64,000 nucleotides of DNA from Escherichia coli (GCF_011045215.1 NZ_CP049201.1); one strand, 5' to 3'; shown: positions 1-1,351, numbered from the stretch's first letter. Numbers and translations are program-made. The notes: generated by a model from the sequence alone, not told the origin.

Positions 1-558
1 GATAAAACCCCATCCTTCCACCAGAGAATTACCAAGAGCATCAACAGAGTGTTTTTTGCTTGAGGATTTCATCAAAAAAAGCAGTCCTGTTTTGTGCAGG
101 AATACGCGATACAAGTAACCATTACCCAGTGCAGGCAACAGGGAAAAAATTCCACTAAAGATTTGCCCACCAGCCACAAATGCAGCATTGTTGGCGATGC
201 ATTCAGGTTTGATTTGCCGTAATACCCACTGGCGACCCTCTGCGGTCGCCTTTGTTTTATCCAGAACGAAACCAGACATCAGATTGATCAGCACCGGACG
301 ACCAGAAAAAATCGTATCAGTCGCGCCACCAGCAAAATTTTTTGCTTTCCGGACAGCGTGGCCAACGATATTTTGCAGCAAAATATTCTGCATTTCTGGC
401 GTGCTGTAGTAACGGTGATCAGCGCCTTCACATTGAACGAACTTGTCGCTAAAATTCACCCACATAGCAAACATCGCGGTGCTGTAGGTAATTCGTTCAC
501 AAAGGCGCTCCGGCAACGGGGCGCTTTTTCTTTTTGTAACGGTCAGAGCGTTACACAT
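1..558 (-). CDS. Hypothetical island protein, N-terminal 186 codons only; ORF runs off the left window edge
   Basis: Hand translation of the minus strand from ATG at 558..556 is open to position 1 (MCNALTVTKRKSAPLPERL...). Its start overlaps the stop of the upstream AntA-like gene (ATGTGTAA), suggesting translational coupling. Not in the ORF track because no stop lies in the window. Function unknown. Confidence 0.5.
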   Translation of the reverse strand, partial: MCNALTVTKRKSAPLPERLCERITYSTAMFAMWVNFSDKFVQCEGADHRYYSTPEMQNILLQNIVGHAVRKAKNFAGGATDTIFSGRPVLINLMSGFVLDKTKATAEGRQWVLRQIKPECIANNAAFVAGGQIFSGIFSLLPALGNGYLYRVFLHKTGLLFLMKSSSKKHSVDALGNSLVEGWGFI

Positions 559-1351
559 GGCTGTTTTCCTCCATGCGACGGGCTAACCAACGCTGCGAAA
601 GACGAATTAATTCAGCTTTCCGCTGGTGGTAGTCCTGGCCTAACTCAATCAGCGTGATATTGCTCTGCTCAAGGTAAGAAAGGTGCTCAAGCTGCAATGT
701 GCTCATGTGGTCGCGTGGTTCGCCTGTGATGTCGTTCGCCTGCGCCCACTGTTTTGCAGTCATGCCACCCAGCACGATACGCGCCAGCATGTTCGCTTCC
801 GTGGTGTAGTGGTGCTGTAGAGTGTTTTTACCCAGTTCAGCCCGGTACGCCTCCAGCGCGGCACACATTGGCTTAAAGTAGCTGGCAACGGTGATACGGG
901 CTTTTACCTCACGGCGTAACGCTGCGGAACGAACAGGCGCAACCTTGTGTAGCTCCTCCTCGCATTTGATAAAGTACTGGCGAACGGCGCGGCCCTGTTC
1001 GGTACGTTCGACCATCGCCAGTTCTTTCGCCATGTTGATAGTGCTCAGGTAGTCGTGCTCTACACGTTGGCGAGATTTTGCGCTCACCGGATTGGGGGAG
1101 GTCAAATTTTCTACGAATTCAAAATCCACGCCCTTTTTAAATCCGTACTCATCAATGCGTCCTTTAATCCAGGTTGTGAAATCACGCTTCACACCCAGCG
1201 CCTTATGCAACGCTCTGGCGCTAACAATATTGGTTTCACGCCCGCCAATAACACCGGAAATAACCGGGATAATATCGCCGAAATTTTGCAGATTCTGGTT
1301 TTCAGGCCGAACGAAGCCCTGCCCCTGTACGGGCATATATCCAGTCTTCAT
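551..1351 (-). CDS. Phage antirepressor-like protein, AntA-family N-terminal domain, C-terminal half unassigned
   Basis: 266-aa ORF. Residues ~40-130 (NIVSARALHKALGVKRDFTTWIKGRIDEYGFKKGVDFEF ... MAKELAMVERTEQGRAVRQYFIKCEE) match the conserved AntA antirepressor motif pattern as I recall it. Lies in the integrase/AlpA module. Confidence 0.65.
   Translation of the reverse strand: MKTGYMPVQGQGFVRPENQNLQNFGDIIPVISGVIGGRETNIVSARALHKALGVKRDFTTWIKGRIDEYGFKKGVDFEFVENLTSPNPVSAKSRQRVEHDYLSTINMAKELAMVERTEQGRAVRQYFIKCEEELHKVAPVRSAALRREVKARITVASYFKPMCAALEAYRAELGKNTLQHHYTTEANMLARIVLGGMTAKQWAQANDITGEPRDHMSTLQLEHLSYLEQSNITLIELGQDYHQRKAELIRLSQRWLARRMEENSHV

Follow-up and report, generated by a model that had tools for sequence, protein, structure and literature searches.

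An AntA-type "antirepressor" family protein of an Escherichia coli PICI-type island carries the C-terminal domain of P22-type Rha proteins and resembles DdrC in its predicted fold

The antA gene of a PICI-type satellite island in Escherichia coli encodes a "Bro network" protein in which an N-terminal AntA domain is joined to a conserved C-terminal domain of the Rha type. Our leading and still tentative interpretation is that the product acts as a dimeric DNA-interactive regulator from the Bro zone of the satellite. The finding is ordinary overall: the protein is already catalogued and common in E. coli, and the place of its class in PICI genomes has been described. What we add is the identification of the C-terminal half as a Rha-type C-terminal module, the likening of the whole-protein architecture to that of DdrC, which provides one modest new structural lead, and the placing of the variable, probably specificity-determining part in the N-terminal winged helix. 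The practical value lies mainly in annotation, the protein bearing the name "antirepressor" without a demonstrated tie to a proven antirepressor. In addition, the C-terminal module, the DdrC-like architecture and the N-terminal variability provide concrete testable points for work on the interaction of PICIs with their helpers.

Results

The antA product is a catalogued protein common in E. coli

The window analysed here is a stretch of 64,000 nucleotides of E. coli DNA (GCF_011045215.1 NZ_CP049201.1). Within it, antA is an ATG-initiated gene of the minus strand at 551..1351, with 266 codons followed by a stop codon; the peptide quoted in the preliminary description of this locus, HHYTTEANMLARIVLGG, corresponds to residues 180-229 of the product. 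The protein is identical to WP_164475905.1 / QIF14575.1, recorded as "antA/AntB antirepressor family protein [Escherichia coli]", and protein comparison showed full-length homologues that share 60-64% identity with it. Since RefSeq holds the exact protein and full-length homologues exist at this level of identity, antA is not a chance ORF. Gene matches covering at least 80% of antA were found in 405 of the 5,426 complete E. coli genomes and matches of any extent in 1,072 of them, about one fifth, the top match being 95.8% identical. Among the matches listed, all full-length or near-full-length E. coli hits are annotated "antA/AntB antirepressor family protein".

The N-terminal half is an AntA domain

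Profile searches, proposed in the preliminary description, assigned the N-terminal half to AntA, while the C-terminal half, also searched by itself, has no Pfam family, yet is matched by PHROG and PADLOC profiles. The Pfam AntA model (PF08346) matches residues 43-117 (1001..1225, minus strand) with an E value of 5.8e-23 and 81.7 bits, against a gathering cut-off of 27, and the match spans the whole 68-position model, bearing out the earlier assignment of this half. In the AF2 model presented below, the domain adopts a winged-helix fold. The N-terminal domain of Rha proteins (Phage_pRha / TIGR02681) is absent from the product in Pfam and NCBIfam scans. Elsewhere, in NZ_CM129872.1, 228 nt of the AntA domain (approximately residues 55-130) match a gene of E. 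coli whose annotation is KilAC-domain antirepressor. This AntA head is thus joined to a KilAC tail as well, and the pairing is direct evidence for head/tail swapping within E. coli.

The C-terminal half belongs to a mobile Rha-type module

By sequence comparison, the C-terminal half of the product is the C-terminal domain of P22-type Rha. Residues 159-254 align with the C-terminus of ES18 gp79, a P22-type Rha, at 35% identity (E 4e-17), the N-terminus of gp79 being TIGR02681 pRha; gp79 is annotated as similar to P22 Rha, with the remark "affects growth in host lacking IHF". Homologue search, multiple sequence alignment and AF2 modelling delimit the conserved domain to residues ~150-262 (566..904, minus strand), ending in a helical bundle. 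PHROG 2657 ("transcriptional regulator") matches residues 100-254 (E 1e-17) and is the sole PHROG matching the C-terminal half alone, and the PADLOC candidate PDC-S22 matches residues 171-255 (E 2.8e-10) through only positions 176-260 of its 281. Pfam gave no family at cut-off for the last 129 or 149 residues, an NCBIfam scan of the product yielded zero matches, and sequence searches of the PDB with the single protein or with a 64-sequence profile returned zero relatives. The preliminary description had stated that the C-terminal half matches nothing recognisable; this holds for Pfam and NCBIfam models and gives way to the matches with PHROG 2657, PDC-S22 and ES18 gp79. A Peptidase_M2 hit on the same half was sub-threshold, seen at Pfam E values up to 10, and was treated as chance.

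Homologue searches with the C-terminal half returned mainly close fragments on short contigs, and a library of cluster representatives was searched instead. An exhaustive phmmer search of residues 138-266 against 1.84 billion representatives, with E values up to 1e-3, placed the module in 263 protein clusters, nearly always at the extreme C-terminus of proteins of 210-280 aa. The N-terminal domains that Pfam assigned among 105 full-length members were Phage_pRha (49), AntA (23), KilA-N (23) and Bro-N (2); the C-terminal module itself had a Pfam match in none of the 105. Standing behind Rha, AntA, KilA-N and Bro-N heads, it is therefore a mobile, conserved module of "Bro network" regulators, and Rha, KilA-N and Bro-N proteins carry it from Firmicutes to Proteobacteria. 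It is rare in sequenced phages (36 of 50,697 records, mostly P22-like Salmonella phages), and the only full-length phage relative in these records is that of Edwardsiella EPP-1, at 64% identity.

The alignment showed two residues of the C-terminal domain, E185 and R244, to be invariant across phyla and seven more (R152, K175, H181, G196, R213, K245 and L248) to be at least 90% conserved; the conserved positions are mostly polar. The consensus motif reads R..GK.T...HYSNE...G...RD...N..LI..G..Y..RK..L, and the antA product carries T184 and A190 at motif positions where the consensus is N. Inspection of the conserved residues by eye for a HEPN-like Rx4-6H or other catalytic signature revealed none that was convincing.

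The predicted fold resembles that of DdrC

The preliminary description had also suggested structure prediction, and the resulting AF2 model consists of a winged helix, a 55-residue helix and a bundle. The model was built from a 64-row alignment of full-length AntA-type members and C-domain fragments of other types; its mean pLDDT of 91 compares with only 44 for the single-sequence AlphaFold prediction that it replaced. The N-terminal part comprises a beta-hairpin (strands 30-35 and 38-44), a helix-turn-helix (helices 45-52 and 58-69) and a wing (strands 77-81 and 99-104), followed by helix 105-114. A single uninterrupted helix of 55 residues (118-172; 836..1000, minus strand; pLDDT >90) joins both domains, and the C-terminal bundle is made of helix 179-193, the short helix 199-205, a turn at 212-215 and helices 218-236 and 241-265. 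The net charges of three segments of the product are all near neutral, hence no strongly basic DNA-binding surface is marked and charge neither supports nor excludes DNA binding.

Foldseek comparison with the PDB returned DdrC as the best match and as the only one below an E value of 1 (3e-5, ~240 aligned columns). Like DdrC (PDB 7QVB, 7UDI, 8U0G), the modelled protein has a wHTH N-terminal domain and a four-helix-bundle C-terminal domain, and the elements follow in the same order: hairpin, HTH, wing, helix, long helix, helix, short helix with turn, and two helices. The similarity is structural only, with 15% identity, and helical bundles are common, leaving the depth of the bundle likeness uncertain; the 64-sequence profile detected no DdrC chain in the PDB at E values up to 10. 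DdrC is a DNA-binding dimer built of a wHTH and a four-helix bundle, both of which dimerise (PMC9303277, PMC11347143). Its DNA-binding grooves are formed from both domains (PMC9303277), and its asymmetric dimer recognises nicked and broken DNA (PMC11347143). The DdrC papers describe the protein as lacking known structural homologues (PMC9303277) and, outside Deinococcus, sequence homologues (PMC11347143). By analogy with the linker helices of DdrC (PMC9303277), helix 118-172 of the model is likely to be a dimer axis. All matches in a fold search of BFVD were to uncharacterised proteins, their labels being antirepressor, KilA-N, regulatory protein or Bro-N.

antA lies in the Bro zone of a PICI-type island

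antA is the third gene of a co-oriented int-alpA-antA row. The 62-aa alpA of the integration zone (1404..1592, minus strand; Pfam Phage_AlpA, E 3e-18) lies 52 nt upstream of antA, and the island tyrosine integrase, with P4-type arm-binding and catalytic domains in Pfam, is encoded at 1956..3206 (minus strand). The island interrupts comM/yifB beside the ilv operon, with its right end near 3376; gene comparison identified the 5' fragment of comM/yifB left by the insertion at 3352..3561 (minus strand), and a ChlI fragment is present in the related locus L014. The order of the three genes and the PICI-type island in comM agree with the earlier view of antA as a satellite or island gene. The adjoining ilvG (4122-5768) is an intact 548-aa ORF, and the Rfam model Rev39_5p_UTR matches the ilv leader region of the sister locus L001.

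The window stops inside the island, before the replication zone. On contigs encoding the identical protein, the next genes are those for DUF4222, a D5_N/DUF5906 primase-helicase, ProQ/FinO, PerC and a lytic transglycosylase (SLT) of ~690 aa, and in sister islands the plan is the same, the replication genes there being of RepA or Toprim/DUF927 type. The relatives L001, L003, L005, L009 and L013 agree in placing antA between the integration and replication zones. Gram-negative PICIs are organised in four zones (Integration, Bro, Replication and Late), of which the Bro zone is dynamic and undergoes domain swapping (PMC10111431). AntA is among the ten Pfams published for the Bro network (PMC10111431), and antA is thus of the Bro network both by its domain and by its position. 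The pairing of AntA with the Rha-type C-terminal domain is named neither in the main text nor in the supplements of that report, and its supplements contain no AntA text. In a Pseudomonas satellite, a Rha-family gene directly follows alpA (PMC4936722).

Just after the antA stop codon begins a long open frame (1..549, minus strand), 183 codons open to the window edge, through which it runs. In related islands the same frame ends in an Icd-like domain. In L012, an island without antA, it is a 597-codon ORF (14762-16555, minus strand) beginning 4 nt after the alpA stop codon; this ORF passes antisense through an annotated YlcI/YnfO gene and has a 48-aa Icd-like domain (NF033153, E 8e-21) at its end. 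The corresponding place in L014 is taken by an open frame of ~345 codons (10802-~11840, plus strand). These frames resemble the eta/kil frame of P4, which is long and translationally coupled to the alpA homologue (PMC10111431).

Two hairpins, a strong GC-rich one of 12 bp at 501-528, 23 nt past the antA stop codon, and a second at 231-250, lie within this minus-strand frame. They look like terminators of transcription that converges on antA, because their T-runs are on the plus strand. In the 363-nt intergenic region between int and alpA, two tandem 20-nt direct repeats (1875-1914; TTATTCCTTGTTGTAGCTTA, 95% alike) adjoin promoter-like hexamers on the minus strand and are possible candidates, judged from their sequence, for regulator-binding sites upstream of alpA.

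The late zones of L001 (4416-7817), L009 (13481-18649) and L014 (18080-20801) encode lytic transglycosylases of 680-900 aa, and the late zone of the E. coli PICI EcCIMP1 additionally encodes a "phage DNA ejection protein". The late zone of L001 further encodes a DUF2213 protein, and that of L014 matches Pa193_gp24 weakly. Judged from this gene content, the islands may provide the helper with podovirus-type internal virion proteins or replace those that it has.

The winged-helix core varies and the C-terminal module is conserved

Comparison of the window allele with those of the sister islands L001, L003 and L013 showed 97-98% protein identity in the C-terminal half (residues 138-262) against only 79-83% in the N-terminal half (residues 21-137). 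At the nucleotide level, a mosaic block of codons 41-100 (1052..1231, minus strand), the winged-helix core, is 72-77% identical to L001 and L003, and the flanking segments of antA are 87-100% identical. Among these close relatives, recombination thus exchanges the winged-helix core and spares the C-terminal module. The conserved C-terminal half and the mosaic core together indicate that specificity probably resides in the N-terminal domain, the opposite of what would be expected if the C-terminal domain chose the target.

The gene also varies in presence. L012, integrated at tRNA-Pro, is 97.6% identical to window positions 1-532 and lacks antA; alignment of its positions 16001-16766 with window positions 1-1592 showed alpA joined directly to the counterpart of segment 1-532. 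antA is therefore cassette-like, insertable at the junction of alpA and the long Icd-like frame, and is an accessory gene rather than a core regulator.

Discussion

In the interpretation that we tentatively favour, antA would probably be co-transcribed with alpA upon activation of the island. The AntA winged helix would serve in allele-specific recognition of the target, and the long helix with the Rha-type bundle would, by analogy with DdrC, form a common core joining two subunits; on the same analogy this core may make a second contact with nucleic acid through its conserved R/K/H residues. The job of such a dimer would most likely be transcriptional or DNA-level control at the satellite-helper interface, exerted on satellite or helper promoters in the manner of PLE CapR, and sequestering of a helper repressor through the C-terminal domain is less likely. 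Some observations fit this reading poorly: the polar residues of high conservation may instead belong to a site of ligand binding or catalysis, the likeness to DdrC is seen in structure and leaves no sequence signal, helical bundles being common, and the lack of antA in L012 marks the gene as accessory.

The preliminary description had suggested that the C-terminal domain determines which helper repressor is targeted, and the allelic comparison does not support this suggestion. The fixed polar residues and the fusion to four different DNA-binding-type heads speak against it as well, being the behaviour of a common core module and not of a partner-specific surface. Homology to a proven antirepressor was not found, nor did any Ant/KilAC protein of known partner prove identical over its full length, and the best fold match is a DNA-binding dimer. 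P22 Ant and P4 epsilon are proven antirepressors, and P4 epsilon lies in the early immunity/derepression region of P4. That the antA product is a true antirepressor, binding the repressor of a helper prophage (like P4 epsilon with P2 C, or P1 Ant1/2 with C1) and inducing the helper for packaging of the satellite, appears to us unlikely and is a weaker hypothesis than a dimeric DNA-interactive regulator. The idea draws on the family name "AntA/AntB antirepressor" used by PGAP and Pfam, on the position of antA behind alpA in the early zone, the region that in P4 houses the functions for immunity and derepression (PMC10111431), and on the adjoining Icd-like ORF, which recalls the c4-icd-ant operon of P1. 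The name, however, is inherited and does not derive from experiment, and P1 Ant1, which consists of a KilAC (ANT) domain only and lacks AntA, is not detectably related to the antA product (BLASTP E 0.06). The PDB fold matches include no solved antirepressor structure. No Rfam match at E values up to 1, including C4/isrK-type immunity RNA, was found in window positions 1-3700, and neither C4 nor isrK was matched at gathering score in L001 or L012. On these grounds, Ant1 being unrelated and the C4/isrK RNA not found, an icd-ant immunity operon in the style of P1 was rejected. Moreover, the presence of EcCIMP1, which encodes a homologue 60% identical to the antA product, left Kapi1 titres after induction and CI-lux expression unchanged (PMC11773190), and a C-terminal domain that is invariant from Firmicutes to Proteobacteria is poorly suited to recognising diverse repressors. 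A literature search for experimental work on AntA-type antirepressors of Stx phages gave nothing directly relevant.

We consider it quite unlikely that the protein is a phage-interference or defence factor which, like Rha of phi80 and P22, would add to satellite-mediated immunity. Such a role is suggested by the PDC-S22 match, by the C-terminal domain shared with P22-type Rha, which blocks phage growth in IHF-defective hosts (PMC4936722), by the contribution of EcCIMP1 to superinfection immunity (PMC11773190), and by the presence or absence of antA among related islands, as would fit accessory defence cargo. PDC-S22 nevertheless has the status of a candidate, matched at only 85 of its 281 profile positions; the immunity phenotype of EcCIMP1 is one of the island as a whole, and the phenotype of Rha is confined to IHF-deficient hosts. 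We judge it very unlikely that the protein resembles DdrC in sensing or binding ends and nicks of DNA, its substrate then being helper or satellite DNA under replication or packaging and not promoters. DdrC, which recognises nicks and breaks (PMC11347143), is the only strong full-length structural match, and antA lies directly upstream of the island replication zone. Against this, the antA product has no sequence-level relationship to DdrC, a single, remote structural relative is a poor guide to function, and the variable, mosaic N-terminal domain suggests sequence- or partner-specific recognition rather than recognition of lesions. The dimeric regulator of the Bro zone thus remains the reading that we prefer.

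Comparison with known systems

The closest experimentally studied counterpart is EcCIMP1, the PICI of E. coli MP1, which is induced and mobilised by phage Kapi1 (PMC11773190); the window island is known here from its sequence. The EcCIMP1 "antirepressor" (WP_001019374.1) shares 60% identity with the antA product over 251 aa, including both domains, and was so labelled by the EcCIMP1 authors, who found it strongly conserved among EcCIMP1-like elements (PMC11773190). Its gene likewise stands after int and alpA, and EcCIMP1 carries Icd-like, DUF4222, primase, PerC and lytic-transglycosylase genes. The two islands differ in that EcCIMP1 has a 143-aa ORF between alpA and the antA homologue and is integrated at tRNA-Thr near proA, whereas the window island lies in comM.

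P22-type Rha proteins (ES18 gp79; phi80 and P22 rha) share with the antA product the C-terminal domain and the same motif set. Their N-terminal domain, in contrast, is Phage_pRha and not AntA, and rha belongs to the late region of the phage, behind the lysis cassette, whereas antA is an early gene of a satellite. In the PDC-S22 HMM, the part that matches the C-terminal domain (176-260 of 281, against residues 171-255) occupies the corresponding relative position; the likeness is confined to the C-terminal module and to a system of candidate status, for which a literature search found a single usage, in a survey. The immI region of P1 shares with the antA locus the antirepressor name, an early or immunity-region location and a neighbouring Icd-like ORF, but differs in the protein itself, P1 Ant1 having the KilAC/ANT domain only and the antA product AntA with the Rha-type C-terminal domain.

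With the Bro-network proteins of satellites (PMC10111431) the antA product has in common the AntA Pfam, the zone position and domain swapping, and a DNA-interactive or regulatory role is accordingly to be expected of it as a member. CapR of PLE, a Bro-network protein cited as a repressor (PMC10111431), has a domain combination other than AntA with the Rha-type C-terminal domain.

DdrC differs from the antA product in its setting, being encoded by a chromosomal DNA-damage-response gene of Deinococcus radiodurans and acting in break sensing and DNA compaction. It is rather improbable, though worth stating, that proteins combining AntA, Rha, KilA-N or Bro-N heads with the Rha-type C-terminal domain share ancestry with DdrC or are dimeric sensors of DNA nicks and ends. 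As nick or end sensors they would act, for example, on replication or packaging intermediates of the helper, rather than as promoter-binding regulators or antirepressors. Common descent would make DdrC a domesticated Bro-network phage protein and trace back to phages a protein hitherto regarded as peculiar to Deinococcus, a modest evolutionary point.
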